Below, piece by piece: positions 1,212-18,787 of a stretch of 22,521 nt of DNA (positions within the stretch are counted from its first letter, which is position 1; every line of letters starts with the position of its first letter). Under the pieces are notes generated by a model. It worked only from the letters and a program-made list of their open reading frames with translations. It was not told where the DNA came from and ran no database searches. The DNA is from Patescibacteria group bacterium (GTDB taxonomy: Bacteria > Patescibacteriota > Gracilibacteria > JAYELJ01): NCBI GenBank assembly GCA_034717395.1, contig JAYELJ010000025.1, forward strand, positions 1 through 22,521. Direction: 5' to 3'. A program made the position numbers and the translations under genes.

Positions 1212-1472
1212 ATGTCACAATATTATGTTTTATTTGAGACAGAAGATAATGGGACTATTACAGTATCTGTTCCAAGTTTGCCAGGGTGCTATAGTAATGG
1301 GCAAACTATAGAAGAAGCAACGAGTAATATCCAAGAAGCAATTCAATTGTACCTCAGTGTAGCAAAAGAACGTAATGAGCAAGATGTTTTAGATCATGAT
1401 GATTCAAGAGTTGTAGTGCAAAGTCTTATGGTAAATACTTCTTCAATGAATAATATCCATAATTATGCCTAG
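1212..1472 (+). CDS. hicB: HicB-family antitoxin (UPF0150 / HicB-like fold)
   Basis: YYVLFETEDNGTITVSVPSLPGCYSNGQTIEEATSNIQEAIQLYL matches the HicB N-terminal signature (PdLPGC..qGeT.eEA..n..EAi). Overlaps the next gene by 8 nt (ATGCCTAG). Confidence 0.8.
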   Translation: MSQYYVLFETEDNGTITVSVPSLPGCYSNGQTIEEATSNIQEAIQLYLSVAKERNEQDVLDHDDSRVVVQSLMVNTSSMNNIHNYA

Positions 1473-1677
1473 TGTTTCAGGAAAAAAGTTAGTGAAATTG
1501 CTTCAATGATTTGGTTATGCTGTTATTAGACAAACTGGTAGTCATGTCGTTCTTGTGAAAGAATGAAATAATAAAAATATTGTAATTCCTATTCATGGAA
1601 ATAAGGATTTGGGATATGGACTGATTCTGAAAATCATCAAAGATGCTGAAGTGAGTAAGTCGGATATAGGTTTATAG
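1465..1677 (+). CDS. hicA: HicA-family mRNA interferase toxin, 70 aa, with two in-frame TGA (Gly) codons at 1507-1509 and 1564-1566
   Basis: Absent from the standard-code ORF track. With TGA=Gly it reads MPSVSGKKLVKLLQ-G-FGYAVIRQTGSHVVLVKE-G-NNKNIVIPIHGNKDLGYGLILKIIKDAEVSKSDIGL. This is the HicA pattern (K.L.k.GF...rq.GSH....; iP.H..k.l..g.l..Il.). Ends at TAG 1675-1677. Confidence 0.8.
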
Positions 1678-1690
1678 TTATTACTCATTC

Positions 1691-2422
1691 ATGTATAAAA
1701 ACCTCCCATATTTTAACGGTGATAAAAAAGATCTTCTTCGGTATTTGAATCAGAAGATTTCAAAGAAACAAACTCCTATTCAAATAGCAACAGTGAATCC
1801 AGAGTTTATTTTGGAATCAAGAAAGAATACTGCGTTTTTTCAGACTCTTCAGAATAGTCTGTGTGTTGTAGATGGAAAAGGCTTGCAATCAGCACTTTCT
1901 TTGTTTGCTTCGAAAAAGTATCCTCGAATTACCGGATCAGATTTTATATATGATCTGATGGCTTTTTCTGAACAAAAAAAACTACGTGTCGCATTAGTTG
2001 GAGCACAAGACGGTGTTGCTGAAAAAACTGCAAGCAAATTGAAAGAGAAATATTCAGAGCTACATGTTGTGTACGCATGAGTTGGGTATTTTGCAGAATC
2101 GGAAAAAAGAAAATTCTTAAATCAGCTGCAAGTCTGCAAACCTGATGTAGTCTGTGTTGCTTTCTGAGCATCAAAACAAGAACTATTTATATCAGAAGAT
2201 CTTTTTCGATATGTAAAAAGTGTGAAAATAGCTATTGGTCTTGGAGGAACATTCGATTATGTTGCGGGGGAAGTGGATCTCGCTCCAGATTGGATGAGAG
2301 TATATGGGATAGAGTGGCTGTATAGGCTTATCACACAACCATCACGCTGGAAACGTATAATGAATGCGGTGATCATCTTTCCTTTGTATGTGTTTTGGTT
2401 ATTTTTGACTCGACAAAAGTAA
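1691..2422 (+). CDS. WecG/TagA/CpsF-family (GT26) glycosyltransferase, 243 aa, with two in-frame TGA (Gly) codons at 2078-2080 and 2165-2167
   Basis: Track ORFs 1691-2080 and 2222-2422 share a frame (offset 531 nt). The joined sequence reads ...LHVVYA-G-VGYFAESEKRKFLNQLQVCKPDVVCVAF-G-ASKQELFI...GLGGTFDYVAGEVDLAPDWMRVYGIEWLYRLITQPSRWKRI. The second TGA falls on the conserved Gly of the family motif V(G/A)xG.PKQE. Confidence 0.87.
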
Positions 2423-2466
2423 TATGTTTTGTTAGTATTTTGTGGATTTTGATAAAGGGGGATATT

Positions 2467-2895
2467 ATGAGTAAAAATTATATGGTGACAGGTGGAGTAG
2501 AGAGATCTGGTAGACATGGGTCTGCTAAAAAAGCCCAAGCTCAATCTAAGAAATCTTTTGAAGAGAGAAGAGATATGTTTTTTGAGAATCATGGTTTTGA
2601 ACAATCAAGAAATGAATTAAATGACTTGAAAGCAGCCTATGCACAGTGGGTAGCGGCAGGATATAATGGTTTAGACCTGAAGAGAAAATTGGTAAAACTA
2701 GGATTTGAGAGTACTGTTTCTGATGATGCAAAAACAGAAAAAACAGTACGAATTATAAAACCAGGGTTTGAAGATATTATGCCTGATGGGTATGAGGCGA
2801 GGGTCTTGGTATGAGCACTAATAATACAAGTTTATGTGTTCTTGGTGAGCACAAAGAGGAGTCTGTGACTCTTAGTGATTTACAAGAGCTTGTAG
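2467..2895 (+). CDS. Hypothetical protein. The standard-code end is TGA 2812-2814; the table-25 end is TAG 2893-2895.
   Basis: ATG 2467 follows a strong SD (AAGGGGG at 2455-2461, 5-nt spacing), so the track's 2395 start is less likely. No recognisable family. Under table 25 the protein gains a 27-aa tail (GALIIQVYVFLVSTKRSLGLLVIYKSL) that overlaps the next gene by 85 nt. Confidence 0.55.
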
Positions 2896-3164
2896 AAAAG
2901 AAGAATACAGAAACAGGATCTATGATTCTATTGCCTGTGATAACAACAGGGTCATTTGGCTATGGTTGTTCTCGGTGTGGGATGATATGGATCGAGAATG
3001 GTTGTTCTCTGTCAGGACAAAACGCTGATGATACAGAGGTTATAGAAGGTGTTACTTATAATGAGTATTTGGAATATTGGCAAGATATGCATGATATGCA
3101 TGATGAGTTTCTTAAAGATTTTATTATGCAAGGGTGATTTATGAACACCAAAATTCAAGTGTAG
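2811..3164 (+). CDS. Hypothetical protein with a CxxC motif (GYGCSRCGMIW). The standard-code end is TGA 3135-3137; the table-25 end is TAG 3162-3164.
   Basis: The ATG at 2811 overlaps the preceding TGA as ATGA. 108 aa to the TGA, plus 9 more codons (GFMNTKIQV) under table 25. No recognisable family. Confidence 0.55.
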
Positions 3165-3200
3165 ATCAAAAATACTCAATTTATATTGGGTGTTTTTTTG
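3145..3200 (+). terminator. Possible rho-independent terminator after the 2467-3164 gene pair
   Basis: ACACCAA (3145-3151) can pair with TTGGGTGT (3186-3193) with one bulge, followed by a T7 run (3193-3199). The loop is long (~34 nt), so confidence is low. Confidence 0.3.
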
Positions 3201-3348
3201 TTTTGAAAATACAAATGACACATTTTGCTATTGTTGTTTTATGTATATATTGCTTTTGCATTAAGATTGTATAATCTATATATTATTCCTTGCTTAACAA
3301 AGGCGACAAGTGAGAATTTGACAGTTGTGTTTTTTTGATGTTTTTGCT

Positions 3349-3376
3349 TTACATTAGAGGATAAAAAAACTAATAT
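3349..3376 (+). promoter_or_regulatory. Candidate promoter TTACAT-16 nt-TAATAT driving a short transcript or the rpoB leader
   Basis: TTACAT at 3349-3354 and TAATAT at 3371-3376. A consensus TTGACA at 3318-3323 has no good -10 partner. Confidence 0.3.
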
Positions 3377-3455
3377 ATTGTGGCTTACAAGAGTAACCCC
3401 ACCATACGTTTAATGCGAATTAGTCCGGTAATAACGAACTAGCATGTAAATTGAT

Positions 3456-3492
3456 CTAAAACATAATTGATGTTTTAGGGGTTTTTGTTTTT
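3456..3492 (+). terminator. Rho-independent terminator or attenuator 30 nt upstream of the rpoB start
   Basis: Perfect 9-bp stem CTAAAACAT (3456-3464) / ATGTTTTAG (3470-3478), 5-nt loop, then GGGG TTTTT G TTTTT. Confidence 0.6.
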
Positions 3493-3522
3493 ATTATATT
3501 TTTTAATTTTTCTCTATAGCTT

Positions 3523-6500
3523 ATGGCTCCGAAGAAAACTTCCAAAGCACCGGAAAAAGTATATGCTAATGCAGATAGGTATTCTGCAGCACGTGAGTTT
3601 ATTTATCGTAGAAAGGAATCTCTTGGGCTTCCTGACTTGATAGAAGTACAGCTCAATTCATATGAGTGGTTTTTGACAGATGGGCTTGCTGCTCTTCTTT
3701 CAGAAGTTTCTCCTATTTCGGATTTTCAAAATGAAAAATTAGAACTCAGCTTTTCTGATCATTATATTGGGACTCCAAAATATGACGAAGAACAGGCTGC
3801 AGACAAAGGGGTGACATACGAAGCTCCTTTGACAGTAAAAGCGGAACTTTTGAATAAAGAAACAGGAGAAATTTCTCACCAAGAAGTATATGTTGGTGGT
3901 ATTCCAATGATGACAGATCGTGGGACTTTTATCGTAAATGGGGTAGAGCGTGTAATCGTAAATCAACTGGTTCGTAGTTCTGGGGTGTTCTTTTCTCGTG
4001 ATCTTGTCCTTACAGATCGTTATAACTTCAAACTTATTCCAAATCGTGGGGCGTGGATCGAAGTAGAAACAGATAAAGGAGATACTCTTTCTATCAAAGT
4101 AGATCGTAAACGTAAGATTTCTGTTACTGCATTCTTACGTGCTCTTGGATATTCCACAGACAAAGAGATTCATGATCTTTTTGCTGATGTTCTCGATCCA
4201 GAGCGTGATTTTATACTCAATACTCTTGAAAAAGATACAACATCAACCACAGATGAAGCGCTTCAATCTGTGTATAAAAAACTTCGCCCAGGGGATCTTG
4301 CAACAGCAGATAATGCCAAAACTCTTGTAAATCAAATGTTCTTTGATTATCGTCATTATGATATTGGTCATGTAGGTCGTTACAAGATCAATCAACGTAT
4401 TGGTGTAGATCGTCCAGAAACAGAAGAAAATTTTGTATTTAATACAGAAGATTTTATTGAAATGGTTCGTGAACTTATTCGTATGAATAATACAAGTGGA
4501 GTAGCTGTTTCTGATGATATCGATGCTCTTGATAACCGTCGTGTTCGTAGTGTAGGGGAGCTTGTTCAAAACAAATTTCGTGTTGGTTTGCTTCGTTCTG
4601 AGCGTATTGTGAAAGATCGTATGTCGACACTCGATCTTGAAAAGCTTACTGCTCAACAATTGATCAATTCGCATCCAATCAATGCAGCTCTTCGTGAATT
4701 CTTCTCGAGTTCTCAACTGTCGCAATTTATGGATCAAATCAACCCACTTGCGGAACTTGCTCATAAACGTCGTCTTTCTGCTCTTGGTCCTGGCGGACTT
4801 ACTCGTGAGCGTGCGTCGTTCGAAGTTCGTGATGTACATACTACGCATTATGGTCGTGTATGTCCTATTGAAACACCGGAGGGACCAAATATTGGTCTGG
4901 TAGTACAGCTTGCAACTTTTGCAAAAGTAAATCGTTATGGTTTTCTCGAAACACCATTTCGTACTATTAAAAACACTGTTCCAAATAAAAAAGAAGATCT
5001 TATTGAACGTCGTTTTATCCATGATTTTGAAGTGAAAGGAAAAGTTATTGCACAGAAAGATACTGTGATCGATGAAAAACTGGCAGATACAATTGTAAAA
5101 ATAAAAGATCTTACAGAGGTTCGTGTATGTCCATATGTGACAGAAGAAGTGAAGTATTACGATGCTTCATATCAAAAAGAAATGATTCAAGTGCCATTCT
5201 CGGTAGAAACAAATGAGAAAGGAGAGTTTGTAGAACGTCGTGTAGCAGCTCGTGTAGCAGGGGAACCAGCTATGGAGCATATCGATAATCTGACGCATAT
5301 GGATGTATCATCTATGCAAGTATTCTCAACAGATACGGCTCTTATTCCTTTTCTGGAACATGATGATAATGTACGTGCTGCTGTAGGTTCGAATCAACAG
5401 CGTCAAGCGGTTGCAGTAATTCGTCCAGAGGCTCCTTTTGTTGGTACTGGTCTCGAACATGTCGCTGCCAAAAATTCAGGACAAGTAGTTGTTTCTGATA
5501 ATGAAGCAGAGGTGGTATATGTAGATGGACAAAAGATTGTAACAGTAACAGATTCTGGAGATCAGTTTACGTACGAACTTCGTAACTTTGCTCGTACCAA
5601 TCAAGGAACACTTCTTCATCAGAGTCCTATCGTATCAGAAGGACAATGGGTGAAAGAAGGTCAGATCATGGCGCAAGGTCCAGCGATCGAAGGAGATGAA
5701 CTAGCTCTCGGTCAAAATCTTCTTGTAGCATATATGCCATTTCATGGGTATAACTTTGAGGATGCGATTGTAATTTCAGAAAATGTTGCTCGTGATGGGT
5801 TGTTTGATTCAGTTCATATCGAAGATCATCAAATCGATCTTCGTGATACAAAACTGGGAACAGAACAATTCACTCGTGATATTCCAAATATCGGAGGAGA
5901 CAAGCTCAAAGATCTTAATGAAGAAGGGTTTGTTCGTATTGGTGCAGAGGTAGGAATAGGAGATATCCTTATCGGGAAAATTACTCCAAAAGGAGAAACA
6001 GAACTTACTCCAGAAGAACGTCTGCTTCGTGCTATCTTTGGAGATAAAGCAGCAGATGTAAAAGATACTTCTCTTCGTATCAACTCAGGAGAAAAAGGGA
6101 AAGTGATTTCTATCCGCGAATTTACTCGTCGTGATGGTTCAGATCTTCCTACAGGAGTACTCAAACGTATTGTTGTTTCGGTAGCCAAAATCAAACGTAT
6201 CTCTATCGGAGATAAAATGGCGGGACGTCATGGGAATAAAGGGGTTATCTCAAAAATTGTTCCTCGTGAAGATATGCCATTTATGGCTGATGGTACACCA
6301 GTAGATATTGTCCTCAATCCACTTGGGGTAATCTCTCGTATGAATCTTGGTCAAATTCTTGAAACGCATCTTGGATGGGTTTCCAAACAAAAAGGTGTGA
6401 AGATTGCTACGCCAGTACTGAATGGTGTGTCTGATACACAGATTCAAGAAATGTACAAAGAACTTGGTTCTTCAGAAGATGGAAAACTACAACTCTATGA

Positions 6501-7035
6501 TGGGTATACAGGGGAGGCATTTGAACAAACAACAACAGTTGGGTACAAATACATGCTGAAACTTTCTCATATCGTAGAAGATAAAATGCATGCTCGTTCG
6601 GTTGGTCCATACTCTCTTGTGACACAGCAACCTCTTGGAGGGAAAGCGCAACGAGGTGGTCAACGTTTTGGTGAGATGGAGGTGTGGGCTTTGGAAGCAT
6701 ATGGGGCGACTCATGTTCTTCAAGAAATGCTTACTATCAAATCAGATGATGTTCATGGTCGTGGGAAAGCATATGAATCAATTATCAAAGGAGAAAATCC
6801 AGAAAATCCATCGATCCCAGCTTCATTCCATGTACTGGTAAAAGAACTACAAGCTTGTGGTCTGGATGTGGAATTTATTGCGGACGATGGAAATGTAGTT
6901 GATATGAATGAAACAGCTATAGATATTATTGAAGAAGATTCAAAAGCACATTTATATAAAGATAAAGAAGAAGAAAAAGCCGTAGCAGAAGAATTTGCTG
7001 CACTGACAGAAGGAACAGCAACTCTAGAAGAATAA
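3523..7035 (+). CDS. rpoB: DNA-directed RNA polymerase subunit beta
   Basis: Uninterrupted 1170-aa ORF with canonical RpoB blocks (GTFIVNGVERVIVNQLVRS, RLSALGPGGLTRERA, ETPEGPNIGL, GDKMAGRHGNKGVISK, GGQRFGEMEVWALEAYGA). No in-frame TGA. Confidence 0.99.
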   Translation: MAPKKTSKAPEKVYANADRYSAAREFIYRRKESLGLPDLIEVQLNSYEWFLTDGLAALLSEVSPISDFQNEKLELSFSDHYIGTPKYDEEQAADKGVTYEAPLTVKAELLNKETGEISHQEVYVGGIPMMTDRGTFIVNGVERVIVNQLVRSSGVFFSRDLVLTDRYNFKLIPNRGAWIEVETDKGDTLSIKVDRKRKISVTAFLRALGYSTDKEIHDLFADVLDPERDFILNTLEKDTTSTTDEALQSVYKKLRPGDLATADNAKTLVNQMFFDYRHYDIGHVGRYKINQRIGVDRPETEENFVFNTEDFIEMVRELIRMNNTSGVAVSDDIDALDNRRVRSVGELVQNKFRVGLLRSERIVKDRMSTLDLEKLTAQQLINSHPINAALREFFSSSQLSQFMDQINPLAELAHKRRLSALGPGGLTRERASFEVRDVHTTHYGRVCPIETPEGPNIGLVVQLATFAKVNRYGFLETPFRTIKNTVPNKKEDLIERRFIHDFEVKGKVIAQKDTVIDEKLADTIVKIKDLTEVRVCPYVTEEVKYYDASYQKEMIQVPFSVETNEKGEFVERRVAARVAGEPAMEHIDNLTHMDVSSMQVFSTDTALIPFLEHDDNVRAAVGSNQQRQAVAVIRPEAPFVGTGLEHVAAKNSGQVVVSDNEAEVVYVDGQKIVTVTDSGDQFTYELRNFARTNQGTLLHQSPIVSEGQWVKEGQIMAQGPAIEGDELALGQNLLVAYMPFHGYNFEDAIVISENVARDGLFDSVHIEDHQIDLRDTKLGTEQFTRDIPNIGGDKLKDLNEEGFVRIGAEVGIGDILIGKITPKGETELTPEERLLRAIFGDKAADVKDTSLRINSGEKGKVISIREFTRRDGSDLPTGVLKRIVVSVAKIKRISIGDKMAGRHGNKGVISKIVPREDMPFMADGTPVDIVLNPLGVISRMNLGQILETHLGWVSKQKGVKIATPVLNGVSDTQIQEMYKELGSSEDGKLQLYDGYTGEAFEQTTTVGYKYMLKLSHIVEDKMHARSVGPYSLVTQQPLGGKAQRGGQRFGEMEVWALEAYGATHVLQEMLTIKSDDVHGRGKAYESIIKGENPENPSIPASFHVLVKELQACGLDVEFIADDGNVVDMNETAIDIIEEDSKAHLYKDKEEEKAVAEEFAALTEGTATLEE

Positions 7036-7107
7036 GAGAGAAGAATACTCTAGATCTTTGAATATAATATTTGCCTGTATTTTATCCGTCATTAATTATT
7101 TGTATAT

Positions 7108-10100
7108 ATGCTAGACAATCAAAACACTATTGGTTTACATGATTTCTCTTCGATTGCCCTATTGGTAGCTTCTCCTGAGAAGATTGCTGATTGGTCTCAT
7201 GGAGAAATCTTTAAACCTGAGACAATTAATTATCGTACTCAAAAACCAGAACGCGAAGGTCTTTTCTGTGAAAAGATTTTTGGTCCAACAAAAAACTGGG
7301 AATGTTACTGTGGAAAATATAAAAAGATTAAATATAAAGGAATTGTTTGTGAAAAATGTGGAGTAGAGGTAACACGAAGTGTTGTTCGTCGTGAACGTAT
7401 GGGGCATATCAAATTGGCTGTGCCTGTAGCTCATATTTGGTTCCTTCGTAGTACACCTTCTCGTATTGGTCTTCTTTTGGATCTTCCTATCAAGGCTTTA
7501 GAGCGAGTTGTTGGTTTTTCTGCTTACATTGTAAAATCTATCGATGAAGATGGTCGTACAAATGCTATCAAAGAACTGGAACAAGAATTCTCGGAAGTAG
7601 AATCATCAATGCAGGAAGAAGCTCGCGCAGAAATGCAAGCTTTGGAAGCAGCTGTTGCTGCAAAAGAAGCAAAAAAAGGTGAAATCAAAAAACTTCAAAA
7701 CAAACATCTCAAAGAGATGGATGCTTTTATCGAAGAATATGAAGCAATCAAACTTTCTCTTGAATCTCTCGAGGTAAACGGGATTGTTTCGGAAATGGAT
7801 TATGTTCGTCTTCGTATGCGTTTTGGTCATCTTTTTGATGCAGGAATCGGAGCAGAAGCTTTGTATGAAATCATCAAAGATATTGATCTGGAAGTTCTGA
7901 ATGGACAATTGCAAGATCAACTGAAACACGAAACAGGTATCAAACAAAAGAAAACATACAAACGTATCAAATTCATCCAAGGTTTGATCAAATCAAATAT
8001 TCGTCCAGAATGGATGATTCTTACGATTCTTCCTGTAATACCACCGGATCTTCGTCCAATGGTAGCTCTTGATGGTGGGCGTTTTGCGGCTTCTGATCTC
8101 AATGATCTCTATCGTCGTGTTATCAACCGTAATAACCGTCTTCGTCGTCTCCTTGAACTGGGAGCTCCAGAAGTTATCTGTCGTAATGAAAAACGTATTC
8201 TTCAAGAAGCGGTAGATGCTCTTTTGAATAATTCTGCTCGTGCAGGGAAAGCGGTATTCATTGCTGGAGATCGTCGTAAATATAAATCTCTTTCTGATAT
8301 TCTCAAGGGGAAACAAGGACGTTTCCGTCAAAATCTTCTAGGGAAACGTGTAGATTACTCTGGTCGTTCTGTAATTGTAGTAAACCCTACAATGAAAATG
8401 CATCAATGTGGTCTTCCAAAGAAAATGGCTCTTGAACTGTTCAAACCATTTGTTCTTGGAAAATTGGTACAAGATGGAATTGCTCATAATGTGAAATACG
8501 CAGAGCGTATGATCGAATGGGGAAGAAGTGAAGTGTGGGATGCTCTTGAAGAAGTGATTACTGATCACTATGTTCTTCTCAACCGTGCTCCAACACTCCA
8601 TCGTCTTGGTATCCAAGCGTTTCAACCACAACTGATCGAAGGGAAAGCTATTCAAATTCATCCGCTTGTGTGTGCAGCCTTTAATGCCGATTTCGATGGG
8701 GATCAAATGGCGGTGCATCTTCCTCTTTCTGCAGAAGCACAAGAAGAAGCAAAAACACTCATGGTTTCTTCTCGAAATCTTCTCAAACCTTCAGATGGAG
8801 AACCGATTATTAACCCTTCGCAAGATATGATTCTTGGTTGTTACTTTGTAACACAAGAGATCGATGGAGCAAAAGGAGAAGGTTCTATATTTGGATCATT
8901 CGAAGAAGCAAAATATGCATTTGATACAAAAAATATTGAATTCCAATCGAAAATCAAAATACGTATCGATGGGAAAATTCTAGAAACAACATATGGACGT
9001 GTTCTATTTAATAGAATTCTTCCTGAAACAATGGAGTTCAAGAATTATACATTTGGTAAGAGTCAATTGAAGAATTTGATGGCAGAAGTATTCGAAGTTT
9101 CTGATATGGAAACAACAGCACAAGTAGCGGATGCTATAAAAGACTTTGGTTTTGAATATGCTTCTGTATCTGGGATTACCATGTCGATCTACGACTTCCA
9201 TCTTCCTGGGAAAAAATCAGAATTTATTGATGCTGGTACAGATCTTACAGAGAAAATTAATACATTCTTCCGTTATGGTCTTCTTACTGAAGAAGAACGT
9301 TATCTTCATACTCTGAAGATTTGGAATCGTGTGAAAAAAGATATCGAAGGAGAAGTAAAAGTGTCATACGCAAAAGAAAATCCAGTATTTACCATGGTCG
9401 ATTCTGGAGCTCGTGCCAACTGGGGGAATATTACCCAAGTAGCTGGTATGAAAGGTCTGGTAGCTAATCCATCTGGTAAAGCGATCGAAGTACCGATTAA
9501 ATCGTCTCTAAAAGAAGGGTTCTCTATTCTTGAGTACTTTATTGGTACCCATGGAGGACGTAAAGGGAAAGCTGATACCGCTTTGAAAACAGCTTCTGCT
9601 GGTTACCTAACTCGTCGTCTGGTAGATTCTGTTCAAGATGTAATTATTCGTGAGGATGATTGTGGAACAGATAATGGATATATTGTAGATGCTAATCTAG
9701 AAGATGCTATCTCAGAACCGTTCAATGAACGTATCTTTGGTCGTACTCTCGTGAAACCAGCGTGTCACCCTGAAACAGGAGAAGTAATTGCAGATGCAGG
9801 AGTATTTATCGACAAAGAACTTTCTGAAACAATTGCAAATTCTGGTGTAGAGCAAGTAGAACTACGTAGTGTAATGACCTGTCGTACTGTATACGGTATT
9901 TGTAAAAAATGTTACGGAGCAGATCTTGCAAATAGATCAGAAATTGAAATTGGTTCGCCAGCTGGTATTATTGCTGCGCAATCTATTGGAGAACCTGGTA
10001 CACAGCTGACTATGCGTACTTTTCATATGGGAGGAGTTGCTTCTGAGGAAAAAGATATGACAGCCGGTCTCGAACGTGTAGAAGAATTATTTGAGTGTCG

Positions 10101-10986
10101 TGCACCAAAGACACAAGCGGAGATGTCACCAATTGATGGGAAAGTAACACTTTCTATTGAAGGAGATCGTCGTGCTATTATAGTTACTGCTCATGATTTA
10201 CATGATATAGATCATCAACTATATGGTCATTATGATACAGCGGTAAAAGAAGGGGATCAGGTTCGTGAAAAACAAATCATTGCTCGTCTCAAAAAAGGAG
10301 AAGGGAAAGGAGTACTTCGTGCTAAAACAACAGGGGTAGTACAGTCTGTATCAGATGAAAGTATTGTCGTGAAACAATCAGAAAAAGATGTATGTAAATA
10401 CCTGGTTCCGATTCGTGAAACACTCAAAGTACAAGACGGAGACTCTGTGGTAGCTGGTCAGGCAATGACACTTGGTCATCTGAACCTTCGTGATCTTATG
10501 GCTGCTACTGATACATATACAGTACAGAAATATATTATTGATGAAGTTCAATCGATCTATGCTTCACAAGGTCAATCGGTTGCTCGTAAGCATATTGAGG
10601 TTATTACTCGTCAAATGCTTTCAAAAGTTTCGATTCTTGATCCAGGAGAAACGAATTTCCTATCAGGAGAAACAACTTCTCTTCTTTCTGCTCTCGAAGC
10701 AAACAAAGAAGCAGATACTGATAAGAAACGACCTTGCGTATATGAACGTCTTCTTCTTGGTCTTACAAAAGTCGCTATTCATACTGATTCGTGGCTTGCT
10801 GCTGCTTCATTCCAGGAAACCATCCGTGTTCTTATTGAAGCTGCCGTAACACATAAAGTAGATAAACTGAGAGGGTTGAAAGAAAATGTAATTATGGGTC
10901 GTCATATTCCAGCTGGTCGTCACTACAAAGCATTGTATGAAGCGAAATCAGTGGAAGATACCGAAATACATGATGAAAACTATTAA
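7108..10986 (+). CDS. rpoC: DNA-directed RNA polymerase subunit beta'
   Basis: Uninterrupted 1292-aa ORF with a zinc-binding CYCGKY...CEKCGVEV, the catalytic NADFDGDQMAVH, and trigger-loop/bridge-helix blocks (QSIGEPGTQLTMRTFH). No in-frame TGA. Confidence 0.99.
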   Translation: MLDNQNTIGLHDFSSIALLVASPEKIADWSHGEIFKPETINYRTQKPEREGLFCEKIFGPTKNWECYCGKYKKIKYKGIVCEKCGVEVTRSVVRRERMGHIKLAVPVAHIWFLRSTPSRIGLLLDLPIKALERVVGFSAYIVKSIDEDGRTNAIKELEQEFSEVESSMQEEARAEMQALEAAVAAKEAKKGEIKKLQNKHLKEMDAFIEEYEAIKLSLESLEVNGIVSEMDYVRLRMRFGHLFDAGIGAEALYEIIKDIDLEVLNGQLQDQLKHETGIKQKKTYKRIKFIQGLIKSNIRPEWMILTILPVIPPDLRPMVALDGGRFAASDLNDLYRRVINRNNRLRRLLELGAPEVICRNEKRILQEAVDALLNNSARAGKAVFIAGDRRKYKSLSDILKGKQGRFRQNLLGKRVDYSGRSVIVVNPTMKMHQCGLPKKMALELFKPFVLGKLVQDGIAHNVKYAERMIEWGRSEVWDALEEVITDHYVLLNRAPTLHRLGIQAFQPQLIEGKAIQIHPLVCAAFNADFDGDQMAVHLPLSAEAQEEAKTLMVSSRNLLKPSDGEPIINPSQDMILGCYFVTQEIDGAKGEGSIFGSFEEAKYAFDTKNIEFQSKIKIRIDGKILETTYGRVLFNRILPETMEFKNYTFGKSQLKNLMAEVFEVSDMETTAQVADAIKDFGFEYASVSGITMSIYDFHLPGKKSEFIDAGTDLTEKINTFFRYGLLTEEERYLHTLKIWNRVKKDIEGEVKVSYAKENPVFTMVDSGARANWGNITQVAGMKGLVANPSGKAIEVPIKSSLKEGFSILEYFIGTHGGRKGKADTALKTASAGYLTRRLVDSVQDVIIREDDCGTDNGYIVDANLEDAISEPFNERIFGRTLVKPACHPETGEVIADAGVFIDKELSETIANSGVEQVELRSVMTCRTVYGICKKCYGADLANRSEIEIGSPAGIIAAQSIGEPGTQLTMRTFHMGGVASEEKDMTAGLERVEELFECRAPKTQAEMSPIDGKVTLSIEGDRRAIIVTAHDLHDIDHQLYGHYDTAVKEGDQVREKQIIARLKKGEGKGVLRAKTTGVVQSVSDESIVVKQSEKDVCKYLVPIRETLKVQDGDSVVAGQAMTLGHLNLRDLMAATDTYTVQKYIIDEVQSIYASQGQSVARKHIEVITRQMLSKVSILDPGETNFLSGETTSLLSALEANKEADTDKKRPCVYERLLLGLTKVAIHTDSWLAAASFQETIRVLIEAAVTHKVDKLRGLKENVIMGRHIPAGRHYKALYEAKSVEDTEIHDENY

Positions 10987-11965: not shown

Positions 11966-11968
11966 TGT

Positions 11969-12343
11969 ATGGCAAAAAGAACAGTAAAGAGAGGAGCTAT
12001 TCGCTCCAAACAACTGCAAGCAAAAGGTCATTCGAAATCTGATAGAAAATGGAAATTCCATAAATATCGTCGTTTGACCTTTGAACAGGCTCGTGAAGAA
12101 GGAGTTATCGAAGCGAGAAAATTTGTGAAAAAAGACGGATGAGGAAGAGAGCTGGATAGCAATACAGCTGAACTTGCTCAGAGTGATTATTTCTTTCGTA
12201 AAAGAAGAAAATTGAACTGGGTTACGCGTCAGAAATTTGGAACAAATGGACTAGATTATTACGGAAATCCTCATTCAAAGGCTTGAAAGTGGATCACAAA
12301 AAAGAAACATGGGGCATAGAGCTCTTGTTTCTTTTTTATTATA
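11969..12343 (+). CDS. Candidate hidden CDS: highly basic 124-aa hypothetical protein, readable only with TGA=Gly (TGA at 12140-12142 and 12284-12286)
   Basis: The ATG at 11969 lies 3 nt after the ssb stop. MAKRTVKRGAIRSKQLQAKGHSKSDRKWKFHKYRRLTFEQAREEGVIEARKFVKKDG-G-GRELDSNTAELAQSDYFFRKRRKLNWVTRQKFGTNGLDYYGNPHSKA-G-KWITKRNMGHRALVSFLL, ending at TAA 12341-12343. It is the only long open frame in this 450-nt gap on either strand. No family recognised. The last ~15 codons run through the terminator hairpin. Confidence 0.35.
12298..12340 (+). terminator. Rho-independent terminator closing the rpoB-rpoC-greA-ssb(-ORF) transcription unit
   Basis: AAAAAGAAACA (12298-12308) pairs perfectly with TGTTTCTTTTT (12325-12335). 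16-nt loop with a T-rich 3' side. Confidence 0.55.
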
Positions 12344-12380: not shown

Positions 12381-12420
12381 TACTTTATTAAATAAAATAT
12401 TTATTAAAACAAAAACAAAT

Positions 12421-12591: not shown

Positions 12592-12610
12592 GATTCCAAT
12601 ATAGAAAAGA

Positions 12611-12640
12611 AAAAGCTCTCATTTATGAGAGCTTTTTTGC
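12611..12640. terminator. Bidirectional rho-independent terminator between convergent genes
   Basis: Perfect 11-bp stem AAAAGCTCTCA (12611-12621) / TGAGAGCTTTT (12626-12636) with loop TTTA, an A-run on the 5' side and a T-run on the 3' side. It overlaps the last codons of the minus-strand gene. Confidence 0.8.
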
Positions 12641-12985: not shown

Positions 12986-13029
12986 AGAGAGTGTGTGAAA
13001 ATCTAAAGTAAGAAGGTATTACCTTTATA

Positions 13030-13869
13030 TTACGAAATATTTTTCTTATAAGCAAGAGCTATTTGCTCAACTTCTTCTATAGAAAGAGTATGAGGTCTTC
13101 TCTGAGGATCAATAGATAGTGATCAAAGCAATTCTTTTGCCTTCTGTGTATCGAGCCCAAGACCTTGGGTTATGTTATTATGAATCTGTTTTCTTGGTGC
13201 TATGAAAAGTTTATCGAGAATATCTGAGTATTCTTCGATTGATATATTTTGAATCTTTGGCTGAGGAAATATATCTATATGAAATACAGCAGAAGTTACT
13301 TTTGGAGCAGGGTGGAATGCCTCTGGTGGTACCATACGGATGATAGATACATCTCCAAATGCTTTACAAAATAGAGATAGAGCGGATTCATTTTTACTTG
13401 TTACAATTTTATCAACTACTTCTTTTTGCATGAGCATAGTAAGACTTTTTGGTTTGTTTTCTACTTCACCAATATAGTATCGAAGAATTTTCCCGGTAAT
13501 ATAGTAGGGGATATTGGCGACTACTTTATAATCTTTCCATTCGGGTGTGTACAGGAGAGCATCTTGTTGATGCACGGTGAGGTTTTCAAATGATCCACAG
13601 CTATCTGTGTCAGTAAGCACAGGGATAGTCTCTCTGTCGAGCTCAAGTGCGGTTACAGAGTCAGCTTTGCTACAGAGTTTCTGAGTGAGTGCCCCCGGAC
13701 CAGGACCGATCTCAAGAACGGTGTCATCACTGGTTATATTGGCCCCTTCTACGATATCCAGAAGAATATTCTCATCTACAAGGTAATTCTGACCAAAGTC
13801 TTTTTTTGCCCAGAGATTATGTTTTTTGAGAAGCTGAACGAGATGTTGTCTGTGAGCAATATTGAGCAT
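13030..13869 (-). CDS. rsmA: 16S rRNA (adenine1518-N6/adenine1519-N6)-dimethyltransferase RsmA/KsgA, 279 aa, with one in-frame TGA (Gly) at 13123-13125
   Basis: FGQNYLVDENIL and the SAM motif VLEIGPGPGALT. The standard-code ORF stops at 13123, but reading through gives ...AKELL-G-SLSIDPQRRPHTLSIEEVEQIALAYKKNIS. This is the expected KsgA C-terminal helix region (..id...R.e.Ls.ee...la). True stop is TAA at 13030-13032. Confidence 0.93.
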
Positions 13870-13963
13870 ATATTTAAATAAAGCAGTAATTTTCCGTCAT
13901 GCTGAGCGGAATGAAATGGAGTCGAACTCGTAAGAGTACATGAAGTGTAGTATCTGGAAAATT

Positions 13964-14905
13964 CTATCATAAGTATATCTTATCACCCATATTCCTGCAA
14001 TAACAGAGTTTTAAAATAAAAAAAAAGACAGAGGGAATAGAAACCCAATGTCATAATATCATTCATCAGTTTTGTTTTTCATGTTCAAAACTAATTATTT
14101 GATTTCTACCATTATTTTTTGCCTGATAGAGAGCATCATCAGCAGTTTTTAGAAAATTATCTAAATTGATATTGTCTGTTGTATCTGTATAAGAATGCCC
14201 AATACTTACAGTAATATCAATATCAGTAGAGTCATAAGTGACTATAATATCTTCAATAGCTGATCTAATTTTTTCTGCGATAATAGCACCACATTCTTTA
14301 TCGCACCCAGGAAGGAATATTGCGAATTCTTCTCCTCCCCATCTAGCAACAAGGTCAGTAGATCTTACAAGTTTTTCCATAGTACTGGAAAATTCTCTCA
14401 GCACTTTATCTCCAGCTTCATGACCATAAGTATCATTGATGCTTTTAAAATGATCTATGTCTAGCATAAGCATACTAACCATAGCTTTTTTGTTTGTCAG
14501 ATAATCTTTTGTCAGAGCGGAAAACGTAGATCTTGTAAGAAGGTCAGTCAGGTTGTCATGACTATCACTGTATTTTACTGCAATGATTTCTTTGATCCTT
14601 TCTAAATTTTCTTTTTCAAAACTATTTAAAGGATCTTTTCTTCTTCCTTTTAGGACATACCCAAATCCAAGCGGATAGTGTATACCTCTCGAGCAAGAAT
14701 CGCATTTTTTTCCTTTACAGTTTTCTGTTGTTAAGATGTTGATATTATCATTACATCTTGACTGTATACAGGTTCTTTTGAAATTCAAAAGTTCTGATAC
14801 CTTTGCACAGGTTCTAAAAACCTGTGCTATTGAATGAGCCTCTAATATCTCGTCTATAATAGACATATATAGCGGCCAGTTAAATGTTGTGTTGTTTGTT
14901 TCCAT
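13964..14905 (-). CDS. GGDEF-domain diguanylate cyclase with a Cys-rich N-terminal sensor-like domain. The domain ends at tandem TGA-TGA (14063-14068); the table-25 stop is TAG at 13964-13966.
   Basis: Active site RWGGEEFAIFLPG with an intact RxxD I-site (RSTD five residues upstream), plus DIDHFKSINDTYGHEAGD and ALYQAKNNGRNQ. The N-terminal ~115 aa carry six Cys (C..C(x4)C(x11)C(x4)C(x2)C). Under table 25 a 34-aa tail with four TGA codons is appended. Confidence 0.9.
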
Positions 14906-14956
14906 GGAAATCCTTTCAATTTGTTTGTTTCTTATTTCTTATTCTTCTGTCTTGCG

Positions 14957-14985
14957 ATTCTAATCTATGATAAAAGGAAAGTCAA
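14957..14985 (-). promoter_or_regulatory. Promoter for the GGDEF gene: TTGACT-17 nt-TAGAAT (minus strand)
   Basis: On the plus strand, AGTCAA at 14980-14985 and ATTCTA at 14957-14962 with a 17-nt spacer. An AAAGGA SD-like element precedes the ATG at 14905. Confidence 0.5.
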
Positions 14986-15007
14986 AACTTTTTCTTGCAA
15001 AAAGTAT

Positions 15008-16228
15008 TTATTGTTTTTTAGAAAACCAAAAAAGTGAGAACAAAAGGAAAATGTATGTCATTATAAATGCATAAAATAAATCATTTACAAACCAACTATG
15101 AACAAATAAGAGTGGGATAATAGCACTAAGACTCAGCGCTAGTGTTTTTTGCAGAGGGCTTGCAGGGGTATATGGCTTTTGTATACGAAAGCTTTCTATC
15201 CAGGTACGGAAGTATATCCAGAAAAATATAATCAGACCGAGAGGACCGGTTGTTACGGCAATAGTAAGAAGGGAACTCTCTGATCCAGATCCAGAGTTTT
15301 TTCCTGCAGCTGCTGTCCCAAGCTGATCTTGTACATGTTTGAGTGTGTTATATCCTACACCGAGAAAAGGGGAGTGTTTGAGTGGCTGAGTACTTTCTAT
15401 CCAGCTTTGTACACGGAGCTGTGATGTGGCATCAAAAGCAAATGCTCCAGCTATACGTTCTTGCATTTTTTCTGAATTATATATACCAAAACTTCCTACG
15501 AGTATCCCAATAACGATGATCCATGGGGCGCGGATAAGAGCAATCATCATAAGTCCAATGACTAATGCCAGGTAGCTAGACCTGGAAAATGTAAGTCCAA
15601 TGGCTCCGAGTATTATCAGTATCCAAAAGAGTTTGGTAAGTATTTGCTTTTTATCGTAGTTGTTTGTCAGTAACTGAGACAATATAAGTATTACTATTAT
15701 TCCTAGAAACCCACCAACAAAATTTGGGTCATAGAATGTAGAGAGAAGCCGATCTATATGTGGGTCCCAGCCATATTTGATCGCCATTTGAGTAAAATCA
15801 GGATAGAATATGTATTGCAGATATCCAAGTATTGCAACGGCTATCCCTCCATATATACTCGTATCAAAGAGTTTTTCTTTTTCTTGTTCACTCGGGAAGT
15901 AGAGGGGAATAAAAAAGAAAAGAGCAGAATATTCGATAAATCTCAGGAAGTATAAAAAAGAAGTAAAAACCTCCATAGTTCCCAGACTTAGCATTTGTAC
16001 TCCGTACAGTAACGAAATCCCCATAATTATCCAGAGAAAGATAATAGGGAAAGATATAGCCGAAACAGGGATTTTTCGTTTGTTTTGGATAATATCCATA
16101 GTCCCAAAAGCAAGGATGAATGGGAGGATGATATCCGCTATGAGGATGGATGTTGTTCCTGTGAGAGGTATACGAATCAAATTCCCTACTACTACTAGTA
16201 GTAGGATAATATATATAAGTTTTTTCAT
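15008..16228 (-). CDS. O-antigen ligase / O-antigen polymerase-like (Wzy_C family) polytopic membrane protein
   Basis: About 10-12 TM helices with the family core LTFSRSSYLALVIGLMMIAL. The preferred start is MKKLIYIILL at 16228. The track's 16300 start would overlap the end of bcp. Confidence 0.78.
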   Translation of the reverse strand: MKKLIYIILLLVVVGNLIRIPLTGTTSILIADIILPFILAFGTMDIIQNKRKIPVSAISFPIIFLWIIMGISLLYGVQMLSLGTMEVFTSFLYFLRFIEYSALFFFIPLYFPSEQEKEKLFDTSIYGGIAVAILGYLQYIFYPDFTQMAIKYGWDPHIDRLLSTFYDPNFVGGFLGIIVILILSQLLTNNYDKKQILTKLFWILIILGAIGLTFSRSSYLALVIGLMMIALIRAPWIIVIGILVGSFGIYNSEKMQERIAGAFAFDATSQLRVQSWIESTQPLKHSPFLGVGYNTLKHVQDQLGTAAAGKNSGSGSESSLLTIAVTTGPLGLIIFFWIYFRTWIESFRIQKPYTPASPLQKTLALSLSAIIPLLFVHSWFVNDLFYAFIMTYIFLLFSLFWFSKKQ

Positions 16229-16259
16229 AAGTATTATGTGAGTGTGTGGTATGTTTCTA

Positions 16260-16721
16260 TTATAGATTTGTTGTACACCAATCAAGTATTCTCTGGGCAT
16301 GTCCTTTTGCTCGAATATTTCTCCATTCTTGTACTATATTCCCCGTATTATCTATAAGAAAAGTAGATCGTATTACACCCATAACTATTTTTCCATAATT
16401 TTTCTTTTCCCCATAGACCCCGAGTTCAGTCATAAGAGCAAGATCTGTATCAGAAAGAAGCTCTAGGTCCAATTCTTGTTTTTCGATAAAGTTGTGATGT
16501 GATTTGATACTATCTTTACTGACACCGATTATTTGTATCCCTAGCTTTTCAAACTTATTTTTGAGGCAAGTAAAGTCTTTTGCTTCGACTGTACACCCAG
16601 GGGTATTGTCTTTTGGATAGAAGTATAGTAGAGTATGTCAGCTTTTATTTTGAGCTACTAAATCTGCTAGGCTCTTTGATGATCCTGTAGATGATTCGAG
16701 GGAGATATTGAGAAATGACAT
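16260..16721 (-). CDS. bcp: Thioredoxin-dependent thiol peroxidase (Bcp-type peroxiredoxin), 153 aa, with one in-frame TGA (Gly) at 16638-16640
   Basis: The track shows only the C-terminal 70 aa. Reading upstream in frame gives [91 protein letters not shown]... The peroxidatic motif is [12 protein letters not shown]. The TGA falls on the Gly of the family's (K)G(K/H)xxVLYFYP. Confidence 0.9.
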
Positions 16722-16836
16722 GATTATTAATAAGAAAGATTATAAGAAATATTTGAAATGATTATAGAAAGAAATAGGTAAAGATGAAAGAGGAAAACTC
16801 TCAAGTTATTTTATTATAATAAATTTACATAAATCT

Positions 16837-17370
16837 ATGTTGGTTCTTGTTCTTGGTGATACACATATTTACGATCGTACCTATATTTTCCCAAAGTTTT
16901 TATATAAATGGATAGAAAAAGCTGATCAGGTATGGCATACGGGAGATGTTACCAGTGAAGAGTTCTATGATGAACTGAAAACTGTATGTGGAGATAAGCT
17001 TAAATTGGTAGTAGGAAATGGGGATTCTGGGAGTATTGTCCGTGAGAATCCTATCGAATATATTTGGGAGATGTATGGGTATCGTATTTGGCTTCATCAT
17101 GGGCACGAGTACGATCTTCCTCGTTATGATCTTCGTGCTATGGTATCAAAGGCAAAAGAAAAAGAAGCTGATGTGTGTATTTTTGGACACTGGCATCAGC
17201 CTTTGAGTCGTAAGCTTTCTGGTGTGTGGCTCGTAAACCCTGGTTCTACCTGTGATAGTAAACAGTTTGGGGTAGGGGGATTTGCACTCCTTCATTTTGA
17301 TGAAGAATATGGTATGCGTGTTTCTATCCAGACCTATGATACAAGTAAACTAGTCCCTGGGAAGAAGTAA
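16837..17370 (+). CDS. YfcE/MJ0936-family metallophosphoesterase
   Basis: Calcineurin-like motifs in order: LVLGDTH, GDV, GNGD, HHGHEYD, FGHWHQP. Confidence 0.85.
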   Translation: MLVLVLGDTHIYDRTYIFPKFLYKWIEKADQVWHTGDVTSEEFYDELKTVCGDKLKLVVGNGDSGSIVRENPIEYIWEMYGYRIWLHHGHEYDLPRYDLRAMVSKAKEKEADVCIFGHWHQPLSRKLSGVWLVNPGSTCDSKQFGVGGFALLHFDEEYGMRVSIQTYDTSKLVPGKK

Positions 17371-17388
17371 TTTAAATAAGTCAGAAAA

Positions 17389-17422
17389 CCCCCAAGCGAT
17401 AATTCGCTTGGGGGTATTTTTT
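17389..17422. terminator. Bidirectional rho-independent terminator between convergent genes
   Basis: Perfect 10-bp GC-rich stem CCCCCAAGCG (17389-17398) / CGCTTGGGGG (17405-17414), 6-nt loop, A-run on the 5' side, TATTTTTT on the 3' side. Confidence 0.9.
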
Positions 17423-17429
17423 AGCTTGA

Positions 17430-18065
17430 TTATATTTTCCCTGCAAGATCAACTCCAGGAATCAATGTTTCTCCATTAGAAGAGAACGACATTGGACATA
17501 CTTGGTTTGGATTTTTGCGCATGTGTTGAAGTGCTTCGATCTGACGAATTACTTCTTCTACGTTACGACCAAGACCACCAGCTGTCATTTCGATTCCTTG
17601 TACTGTTCCGTCTGGATCGATAATGAAACGACCACGATGAGCAAGACCTTCTTCTTCGATAAGTGTTCCGTATGCACGGCAGATAGCTGTAGAAGGATCT
17701 GCTACAAGAGGGTATTGTACTTTTCCAATAGCCGCTGATGTTTCGTGCCATACTTTATGTGACCATTCTGTATCTGTTGATACTCCGATAACTTCTACAC
17801 CAAGTTCTTTGAAACGATCATAGTGAGCAGCAAGATCTGTTAGTTCTGTAGGACATACAAATGTGAAATCTGCAGGGTAAAAGAATAATACTACCCATTT
17901 CCCATGATAATCTGTCAGGTTGATATCTTTAATTTCTCCATTGTGGAATGCTTTTGCAGTAAATGCAGGAGCAGGAGCTTCCAGCTCAACAAGAGTACCA
18001 GTATCCATAAGATCAGATACTGTGTATTTATCTTCCATTGAATTATCAAAAAATACTGTTGCCAT
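17430..18065 (-). CDS. Typical 2-Cys peroxiredoxin (AhpC/Tsa family)
   Basis: Peroxidatic FFYPADFTFVCPTEL and resolving NQVCPMSF near the C-terminus. The start could instead be one of two internal Met (M10 or M20). Confidence 0.93.
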   Translation of the reverse strand: MATVFFDNSMEDKYTVSDLMDTGTLVELEAPAPAFTAKAFHNGEIKDINLTDYHGKWVVLFFYPADFTFVCPTELTDLAAHYDRFKELGVEVIGVSTDTEWSHKVWHETSAAIGKVQYPLVADPSTAICRAYGTLIEEEGLAHRGRFIIDPDGTVQGIEMTAGGLGRNVEEVIRQIEALQHMRKNPNQVCPMSFSSNGETLIPGVDLAGKI

Positions 18066-18099
18066 ATGTATAATTGAGTTATGTGAGTAAAGTATATTC

Positions 18100-18127
18100 A
18101 GTATAGAGAGTTGTTCTCATTTTACAA
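18100..18127 (-). promoter_or_regulatory. Candidate peroxiredoxin promoter TTGTAA-16 nt-TATACT (minus strand)
   Basis: On the plus strand, TTACAA at 18122-18127 and AGTATA at 18100-18105 with a 16-nt spacer, about 35 nt upstream of the ATG at 18065. Confidence 0.4.
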
Positions 18128-18147
18128 GATGAAAGTTGTCTCATTTT
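18109..18147. repeat. Two direct copies of AGTTGT(T)CTCATTTT flanking or overlapping the peroxiredoxin promoter
   Basis: Copy 1 at 18109-18123 and copy 2 at 18134-18147, 25 nt start to start. One copy lies in the promoter spacer and the other just upstream of the -35. Confidence 0.45.
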
Positions 18148-18148
18148 T

Positions 18149-18787
18149 CTATTTTTTTCTATATTGCAAAAGAAAGACTTTTTTCCCTTCTGATACCCAT
18201 CGTTTTTCAAATACGGTAGTGATATAGTTTTCTTCTTTTATATCTGAGTTATGAAGATCCAGGCAGTGTTTTGTTTCTTGAAAAGTTGCTTTTTTGTGAG
18301 CAAACAGAATACGGGTCCAGAGAAAGTATTCATATTCATCTGTTTTGAGTTCGATAGTCGCATCTGTTTTGAGTTTTTTTGCTAGCGTATCAATTACATC
18401 CATTTGAAAGAAACGTTTTTTCCAATCGCGTTTCTTTGGCCAGAGGTTCGGGAAATAGATATAGAGTTGTTTTATTGAGTTATCTGGAAGATTTTCGATA
18501 CAGTTCCAGTAGTCATCTGATATGAGAGCAAAGCTTGTATTGTCAGAGAGGGATTTAGTTTTATGCAGTCATTTGACCAAACGATCGTTACGAAGGTCAA
18601 CCCCTATACAGAGTTTACCTGGGTTTGTTGATACCAGGTGGGCAAAATAATCACCATTCCCCGGTCCTATTTCTAGGATGATATTATCTGGATTTGGGTG
18701 TGATATGGTAAAATCTTTCATCCCATCGAAAAGATGTTCTGGGTGTTGGAAAAATTCCGCGAGTTGTTTTGATTTTTGACGAGCCAA
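18149..18787 (-). CDS. trmB: tRNA (guanine46-N7)-methyltransferase TrmB, 212 aa, with one in-frame TGA (Gly) at 18569-18571
   Basis: Track ORFs 18569-18787 and 18149-18403 join in frame: ...ILEIGPGNGDYFAHL...GVDLRNDRLVK-G-LHKTKSL...QLYIYFPNLWPKKRDWKKRFFQMDVIDTLAKKL... SAM motif is EIGPGNG and the TrmB signature is FP(D/N)xWPKKR..KRR. The annotated start is TTG at 18787. The first ATG is at 18721. Confidence 0.88.

Follow-up and report, generated by a model that had tools for sequence, protein, structure and literature searches.

UGA is read as a sense codon, most likely for glycine, on a contig from a nearly unsampled branch of the Patescibacteria

What does UGA mean in a bacterium in which recognizable genes are interrupted by TGA and by no other stop codon? 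This question is raised by a stretch of 22,521 nt from a Patescibacteria group bacterium (NCBI assembly GCA_034717395.1, contig JAYELJ010000025.1, positions 1 to 22,521 of the forward strand). The stretch, called the window from here on, is the complete public contig of an uncultured organism and has a GC content of 37%. An initial annotation had described seven in-frame TGAs in hicA, in the gene for a glycosyltransferase of the GT26 family (WecG/TagA), and in rsmA, bcp, and trmB and had read them as glycine codons. UGA encoding glycine (translation table 25) is the known code of the Absconditabacteria (SR1) and of the BD1-5 Gracilibacteria (GTDB class JAEDAM01). Here, we report that UGA is translated as a sense codon in this genome, a conclusion that rests solidly on nine in-frame TGAs in six genes. 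We consider it probable that the encoded amino acid is glycine (a table-25-type code), with only UAA and UAG terminating translation, and that the organism belongs to a nearly unsampled branch of the Patescibacteria near the Peregrinibacteria and Gracilibacteria.

In-frame TGAs are read through in six genes

All seven TGAs of the five genes were found in frame (Table 1). When the window proteins were matched to Pfam profiles with X placed at each TGA, the matches ran across the TGAs without a break. The HicA_toxin profile spanned both TGAs of hicA in a single match (profile positions 1 to 57 of 58; 61 bits), and both TGAs of the GT26 gene were spanned by Glyco_tran_WecG (2 to 167 of 168; 156 bits). 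The TGAs of rsmA, bcp, and trmB lay within matches to RrnaAD (4 to 253 of 263; 172 bits), AhpC-TSA (7 to 122 of 124), and Methyltransf_4 (3 to 171 of 173), respectively. The joined proteins thus matched all five profiles almost completely, and the view that five genes had been mis-split by the standard-code track was borne out, with the correction that six genes are affected (see below). Alignments to solved structures also extended beyond the TGAs. For example, the alignment of RsmA to KsgA of Bacillus subtilis extended past the TGA (IDxxRRxxxLSIEE), which lay opposite Glu; the NCBI version of the protein (MEA3304347.1; table 11) ends at residue 248. No TAA, TAG, or frameshift was found inside the five genes. 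That all seven interruptions are TGA would have a probability of ~5e-4 if random nonsense mutations produced each of the three stop codons equally often.

The TGAs were then compared with an independent assembly, for which Logan contigs L085, L086, and L087 from run SRR26901930 were used. These contigs span most of the window with at least 99.8% identity, and every window TGA was kept in them (the hicA pair in L086, the rsmA codon in L085). L085 and the window differed by 18 single-nucleotide polymorphisms (SNPs), 12 of which were synonymous and 6 of which were not. The conservation of the TGAs in an independent assembly, together with the mostly synonymous SNPs, rules out assembly errors, which the initial annotation had still allowed for, as well as decaying pseudogenes. 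Therefore, the TGAs are genuine, and selection acts on the genes.

The sixth gene encodes a basic protein of 116 amino acids. Its front half is in the public record as a 57-residue protein (MEA3304344.1), which corresponds to the table-11 open reading frame (ORF) at 11969-12142, following ssb. When 1.84 billion representative proteins were searched exhaustively with HMMER, only the 116-residue protein itself and one other protein, P0250 (115 residues), were found, and two metagenome scans for further relatives gave none. P0250 was 61% identical over residues 1 to 114, the part beyond the first TGA included, and the conserved block DYFFRKRRK.NW.TR.KFG sits downstream of this TGA. Since P0250 aligns over the full length, one of the four ORFs that apparently end at TGA in the window is really read through. 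The only contig found to encode the ortholog was L088 (Logan SRR17886269; 6,665 nt; 41% GC). This contig is itself recoded, with a TGA density of ~0.14%, similar to that of the window, and has in-frame TGAs in pheA, in an rluA-like gene, in a gene for a DUF4012 protein that is split in two by table 11, and in lepA.

Codons, TGAs, and stops were counted in 18 window genes taken as confident. Ten of these genes end with TAA and seven end with TAG, so that 17 of the 18 have the same kind of stop under either code, the exception being the GGDEF gene (see below), and the earlier statement that recoding changes every gene boundary in the window went too far. The high share of TAG resembles that in the two code-25 loci used as references, L002 (BD1-5) and L079 (SR1). 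The table-25 reading rejoins six genes and extends three ORFs by 9 to 34 codons. The public table-11 annotation truncates or splits the six genes, and the table-25 versions of the proteins were absent from a collection of 15 billion proteins. A crude comparison of ORF coverage with TGA open or closed strongly flagged both reference loci and weakly flagged the window (0.76 to 0.87); it was not decisive and was put aside.

Glycine is the best-supported residue

All 20 amino acids were substituted at the TGA sites and the Pfam bit scores were compared, which is a small-scale analogue of Codetta. At codon 159 of the GT26 gene, a TGA had been placed on a conserved glycine (VAF-G-ASKQE), and this held: the codon lies opposite the invariant G of VALGAPKQE in TagA structures (7mpk/5wb4), and glycine gave the best score (160.2 bits), 3.5 bits above serine (156.7 bits). 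Further evidence came from outside the window. The P0250 codon opposite codon 58 of the sixth gene is GGC (Gly), and two of the four TGAs on L088 fall on glycine motifs. The end of pheA on L088 reads VIHL-TGA-SY-TAA, and this TGA matches the G of the LGSY motif in 2qmx and 3mwb, both prephenate dehydratases. With glycine, but with none of the nine other residues that were tried, the NCBIfam model for this enzyme was among the top 25 matches listed, which implies a lead for glycine of at least 4.3 bits. The TGA of lepA on L088 lies at a DG turn, where the LepA structures, which come from three species, all have G; glycine was the best of ten residues at this site, with a margin of ~1 bit, and tryptophan was the lowest.

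The genome has also been treated in a recent preprint, according to which GCA_034717395.1 is the sole genome of the GTDB order JAYELJ01, within the standard-code class Gracilibacteria (10.64898/2026.05.24.727570). Despite this class, the use of table 25 and the lack of release factor 2 (RF2; gene prfB) were predicted for GCA_034717395.1 and for the order GCA-2401425 (10.64898/2026.05.24.727570). The main text states that Codetta aligned 152 UGA columns of GCA_034717395.1 to tryptophan, and the legend of Supplementary Figure 4 states that Codetta predicts table 25 for the same genome (10.64898/2026.05.24.727570). The two statements conflict, and one of them must be a slip. The window alone does not single out glycine. 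It is the evidence from outside the window's Pfam columns, that is, the ortholog of the sixth gene, the sites on L088, and the predictions in the preprint, that rescues the glycine call, and judged by these alignments and predictions, the best-supported residue for UGA is most likely glycine.

Reassignment of CGA and CGG to tryptophan, as in SR1, was also considered and was rejected. There are five CGA codons and no CGG codons in rpoB and rpoC; none of the five is on a tryptophan column, and two are on columns dominated by R or K. The single CGA (Arg) in rpoB is codon 1044 (6652-6654), at which 119 of 134 RpoB homologs have His. Two of the four CGA codons in rpoC account for the R/K-dominated columns, and the other two are on variable ones.

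Use of UGA and placement of the lineage

UGA is used sparingly. The ratio of TGA to GGN codons was 1.7% (7 TGAs versus 407 GGN codons), or 2.2% if the two TGAs of the sixth gene were included, compared to 8.7% in L002 and 16% in L079. In rpoB and rpoC, no TGA was found in 2,462 codons, whereas L002 and L079 have 5 and 10, respectively. The sense TGAs are mostly at variable surface positions.

The best non-self match to RpoB among 5.8 billion proteins was ~62% identical, and the labels of the top matches were a mixture of Peregrinibacteria, Gracilibacteria, and Patescibacteria. A scan of GTDB genomes with RpoC gave nothing above 53% identity among the matches listed. A neighbor-joining tree of RpoB was calculated from 1,123 columns with 200 bootstraps; it represents one gene with long branches. 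The window was the sister of P0004 in 155 of 200 bootstraps (78%) and was inside a Peregrinibacteria-like, standard-code clade in 196 (98%). L002 and L079 formed a monophyletic pair in 185 (93%), and this pair was the next branch out from the Peregrinibacteria-like clade. The placement of the window outside BD1-5 and SR1 is, as judged from this single tree, provisional. The contig around the rpoB of P0004, the nearest RpoB relative of the window (L081; ENA ERZ27247363), has no in-frame TGA, and seven of its seven genes end with TAA or TAG, but its 19 kb are too short to tell the code of that lineage. In another neighbor, L083, TGA is clearly used as a stop.

GyrA encoded on L088 was 57% identical to GyrA of the P0004 lineage. 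An apparent TGA polymorphism in gyrA of this sister lineage, between L081 and L082, was examined and was rejected as a case of recoding, because it results from a 1-nt deletion. The gene (L082, 10283-13002, minus strand) is split in the JGI copy, and the ENA copy is otherwise identical over ~15 kb (99.99%, one gap); the break is an assembly or strain frameshift.

Observations at odds with a completed reassignment to glycine

Not all of the data fit a UGA that always means glycine, and the following observations have to be weighed against it. At codon 130 of the GT26 gene, which lies opposite H in TagA (7mpk/5wb4), His (153.3 bits) and Tyr (152.4 bits) were ahead and Gly was the worst residue (149.5 bits). 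Glycine was near the worst at codon 249 of rsmA (174.6 bits, with Asn at 179.3 and Asp at 179.0) and at codon 73 of trmB (98.7 bits, with Cys and Val both at 102.4), where the PDB residues are Ala or Cys. It was middling at codon 15 of hicA (55.1 bits; Lys 58.4, Arg 57.3; opposite E, K, or D in the PDB) and at codon 28 of bcp (93.0 bits; Lys 95.6, Gln 94.8; opposite H or R). At codon 34 of hicA, opposite P, glycine equaled Glu at 57.2 bits, behind Asn (58.2) and Asp (58.1). Summed over the seven sites, the scores in bits were N 794.8, H 793.3, Q 792.8, K 792.7, S 792.2, E 791.5, D 791.4, A 790.2, T 789.6, and G 788.3, down to W 776.3, the lowest of the 20; glycine was therefore tenth, level with Arg.

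Of the seven original TGA sites, GT26 codon 159 alone is thus a conserved-glycine column, codon 34 of hicA is compatible with glycine, and five sites prefer other residues. In the calibration, 9 to 10 of the 15 rpoB and rpoC TGAs of L002 and L079 were on glycine-dominated columns. The initial annotation had expected glycine to dominate the TGA columns and had regarded alignment to other residues as grounds to drop its reading; on the evidence of the window alone, one column in seven was glycine dominated, and by that standard the glycine call fails. The further glycines that it had assigned to TGAs in HicA and Bcp turned out to adjoin the TGAs. In HicA, the conserved glycine is the G already present in FGY, next to codon 15, and in Bcp it aligns to Ser27, one residue upstream of the TGA. 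In the sixth gene, P0250 has CAA (Gln) opposite codon 106, in a conserved stretch, and this codon does not fit glycine.

The GGDEF diguanylate cyclase gene has a tandem TGATGA at its natural end. The GGDEF Pfam domain is complete by residue 269 of 279, and read-through would add 34 codons with two more TGAs before the TAG. Among 119 homologs, 93 (78%) end between -10 and +4 residues from the TGATGA, and the 34-codon tail was not reached by the alignment of any of them. Outside the window itself, the best match was 38 to 52% identical, and with relatives this distant, the gene is no fresh import from any sequenced lineage. Two orphan ORFs that overlap by ATGA also end at TGA. They had no match in Pfam or NCBIfam, and read-through would extend the first by 27 codons to 2895 and the second by 9 codons to 3164. 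The three remaining tails together contain 7 TGAs in ~73 codons, a density typical of noncoding DNA. In the last 40 codons of the ORFs, the density of TGA was 8-fold that in gene bodies, compared to 1.7- to 3-fold in the code-25 loci. The sequence contexts of internal and terminal TGAs did not differ consistently.

Finally, the window grouped with the BD1-5 and SR1 pair in 0 of 200 bootstraps of the RpoB tree, so that the code cannot simply be taxonomic inheritance from that clade. The attribution of the code to the Gracilibacteria and Absconditabacteria stands for the kind of recoding, which is known from them, but needs qualifying as to descent, in view of this result and of the grouping with Peregrinibacteria-like sequences.

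Explanations for the use of UGA

In the explanation that we prefer, UGA would be decoded as glycine by a tRNA with the anticodon UCA, and RF2 would be absent; these features lie outside what is visible in the window, in which no tRNA gene was found. The reassignment may be complete but relatively young or only weakly exploited, and at former UGA stops that are still unmutated, translation would simply continue and add short tails. The sparse use of UGA, its absence from rpoB and rpoC, its variable positions, and the TGATGA of the GGDEF gene fit such a young or weakly exploited reassignment.

Alternatively, this Peregrinibacteria-related lineage could have recoded UGA independently of BD1-5 and SR1, or could be a very early offshoot of their recoding event, and have been caught at an early stage, in which case UGA might be ambiguous or might not encode glycine. 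We regard this as possible but unlikely.

A dual or transitional UGA, contested between a tRNA that reads it and a retained RF2 or terminating only in certain contexts, would be compatible with glycine as the encoded residue, but we give it a rather small chance. It would account for the TGATGA exactly where 78% of the GGDEF homologs end, in a gene that is not a recent import, for the two further ORFs ending at TGA, one of them with a typical ATGA stop-start overlap, for the 8-fold enrichment of TGA at ORF ends, which exceeds that in the code-25 loci, and for the low sense usage at tolerant positions, with none in rpoB and rpoC. However, one of the apparent TGA ends, that of the sixth gene, is read through into conserved sequence, and the TGA of pheA on L088 is clearly sense although it is only two codons ahead of the true TAA. 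HicA and the GT26 enzyme each require two read-throughs, which would be costly under competition by RF2, and internal and terminal TGAs showed no consistent difference in context. Furthermore, RF2 is reported to be absent from comparable lineages (10.64898/2026.05.24.727570).

More doubtful again is a new, independently arisen bacterial code in which UGA encodes another small or polar residue, such as Ser, Asn, Lys, or Ala. Nine residues (N, H, Q, K, S, E, D, A, and T) were above glycine in the seven-site sums, and with RpoB outside the BD1-5 and SR1 clade, the code need not share its origin with theirs. But the preferred residue varied from site to site, as is expected at variable positions, and no single alternative fitted all sites. 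The only strongly constrained sites, GT26 codon 159 and the LGSY motif of PheA on L088, favored glycine by at least 3.5 bits, and table 25 was predicted for similar genomes (10.64898/2026.05.24.727570).

That UGA encodes tryptophan (table 4), as in some Minisyncoccia lineages, is very improbable. Tryptophan is the commonest reassignment of UGA in bacteria and has been reported within the Patescibacteria, and the 152 tryptophan-aligned columns in the main text of the preprint would speak for it, were it not for the table 25 in that paper's own legend (10.64898/2026.05.24.727570). The window evidence argues strongly against tryptophan. Its seven-site sum was 12 bits below that of glycine and 18 bits below that of Asn, and no window TGA was on a tryptophan column. 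TGA made up only 11% of TGA plus TGG (a fraction of 0.11, from 7 TGA and 58 TGG), whereas the A-ending codon had a share of 0.62 to 0.88 in the other A/G-ending pairs, TTA/TTG excepted. Rare TGA despite a preference for A-ending codons is unlike what would be expected of synonymous tryptophan codons. A tRNA-Trp with the anticodon CCA is encoded on L087 (5235-5309), ~1.8 kb past the right end of the window, and from our reading of its sequence, the anticodon stem is an ordinary one of 5 bp. On L088, tryptophan was the lowest of the ten residues in LepA, and the prephenate dehydratase model was not among the top 25 matches listed with tryptophan.

A standard-code genome in which the TGAs are errors of sequencing or assembly, lesions of pseudogenes, or selenocysteine codons is hardly credible, even though Bcp belongs to a class of redox enzymes that sometimes use selenocysteine and table 11 is applied in the public record. 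The independent assembly has the same TGAs, all interruptions are TGA without frameshifts, 12 of 18 SNPs are synonymous, Cys scored low, the sites are not opposite catalytic Cys (the aligned residues are E, K, D, P, H, G, R, A, and C), the TGA of bcp is away from the catalytic Cys, five of the six genes do not encode redox enzymes, and an Rfam scan matched no RNA element in the window, although no dedicated search for selenocysteine insertion sequences was made.

Gene content of the window

The genes that bear on the question are listed in Table 1. Further window genes recognized by Pfam or NCBIfam are greA, ssb, and genes for a Wzy-like membrane protein, a metallophosphoesterase, a 2-Cys peroxiredoxin, a UPF0489 protein, and a PIN-PhoH protein.

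Table 1. Positions of window genes and of their TGA codons
Feature	Position (nt)	Strand	TGA codons, stops, and remarks
S41 peptidase gene	left end of window		recognized by Pfam/NCBIfam
hicB	1212-1472	+	last 8 nt overlap hicA
hicA (toxin)	1465-1677	+	TGAs 1507-1509 (codon 15) and 1564-1566 (codon 34); stop TAG
GT26 WecG/TagA glycosyltransferase gene	1691-2422	+	TGAs 2078-2080 (codon 130) and 2165-2167 (codon 159); stop TAA
Two overlapping orphan ORFs	2395-3164	+	table 11: 2395-2814 and 2811-3137, each with TGA end
rpoB	3523-7035	+	no TGA
rpoC	7108-10986	+	no TGA
116-residue lineage-specific basic protein gene	11969-12319	+	TGAs 12140-12142 (codon 58) and 12284-12286 (codon 106)
rsmA (KsgA), 16S rRNA dimethyltransferase gene	13030-13869	-	TGA 13123-13125 (codon 249); stop TAA
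GGDEF diguanylate cyclase gene	13964-14905	-	natural end TGA-TGA 14063-14068; read-through end TAG 13964-13966
bcp, peroxiredoxin gene	16260-16721	-	TGA 16638-16640 (codon 28); stop TAA
trmB, tRNA (m7G46) methyltransferase gene	18149-18787	-	TGA 18569-18571 (codon 73); stop TAG

Several side observations were made on these and neighboring genes. In the second orphan ORF, the NCBI contig has two copies of the 9-nt unit GATATGCAT (Asp-Met-His; 3075-3092, plus strand) and L086 has one, and this in-frame 9-nt indel (3084-3092) between the assemblies suggests that the ORF may be coding. The GGDEF diguanylate cyclase gene is clustered with the genes for two peroxiredoxins, Bcp and the 2-Cys peroxiredoxin, in the region 14066-18065 of this Patescibacteria genome. 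If the Wzy-like gene is given its longest ORF, from 16300 on the minus strand, it shares 41 nt with the end of bcp (16260-16300); translation probably begins farther downstream, at the Met of MKKLIYIILL. An ORF of 83 amino acids at 22065-22316 (plus strand) matches positions 341 to 405 of the 405-position model of the Na+/H+ antiporter NhaD and no other part of it; with the N-terminal part absent upstream, it looks like a gene remnant. Past the right end of the window, L087 has, in this order, a gene for an M16 peptidase, a gene for a membrane protein of 114 amino acids, and the tRNA-Trp gene. At NCBI, these genes are on a separate contig of 4,201 nt from the same metagenome-assembled genome (MAG) (MEA3304468.1 and MEA3304469.1). 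A tRNA with the anticodon UCA was not found in the 1.8 kb beyond the right end.

Significance

The table-11 annotation of the public record (MEA33043xx; locus tags U9Q15_) has cut short or divided at least six genes of this contig, and it must have done so throughout the MAG. Completeness estimates, metabolic reconstructions, and protein databases inherit the table-11 fragments. This kind of recoding is already known, and comparable genomes, probably with this lineage among them, were flagged in the 2026 preprint; what is unusual here is the lineage and the sparing use of the codon. Lineages beyond BD1-5 and SR1 that use UGA as a sense codon, sparsely and with leftover UGA stops, would help to date and order the takeover of a stop codon. 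They bear on the question of whether the codon vanished first or passed through an ambiguous stage, which is more than one contig of 22.5 kb can settle.

Comparison with known recoded systems

Like the table-25 genomes of SR1 and BD1-5, the window has in-frame UGA in conserved genes, UAA and UAG as stops with a high share of UAG, and a low-GC patescibacterial host, and glycine suits its few constrained UGA sites. In contrast to these groups, its RpoB belongs with a Peregrinibacteria-like, standard-code clade, and a conserved gene, that of the GGDEF protein, retains TGATGA at its natural end. Compared to L002 and L079, UGA is sparser, with none in rpoB or rpoC, and the share of glycine-conserved sites is one in seven, whereas it is roughly two thirds in the reference loci.

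The table-4 organisms, that is, the Mycoplasmatales, insect endosymbionts, and some Minisyncoccia, share with the window a sense UGA in a reduced low-GC genome, and the Minisyncoccia are in the same phylum. Unlike in these organisms, tryptophan was the worst fit in each test made here, and the adjacent tRNA-Trp has the anticodon CCA.

The window also resembles the table-25 candidates of the orders JAYELJ01 and GCA-2401425, which, like the window, are Patescibacteria MAGs deposited under NCBI table 11 in which UGA is predicted to be a sense codon and which sit on a long, poorly supported branch amid standard-code relatives. That the RpoB of the window has no relative above 62% identity matches an order with one genome. 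The predictions for these orders were made from whole genomes (no RF2; 152 Codetta columns), whereas the evidence from the window comes from 22.5 kb.

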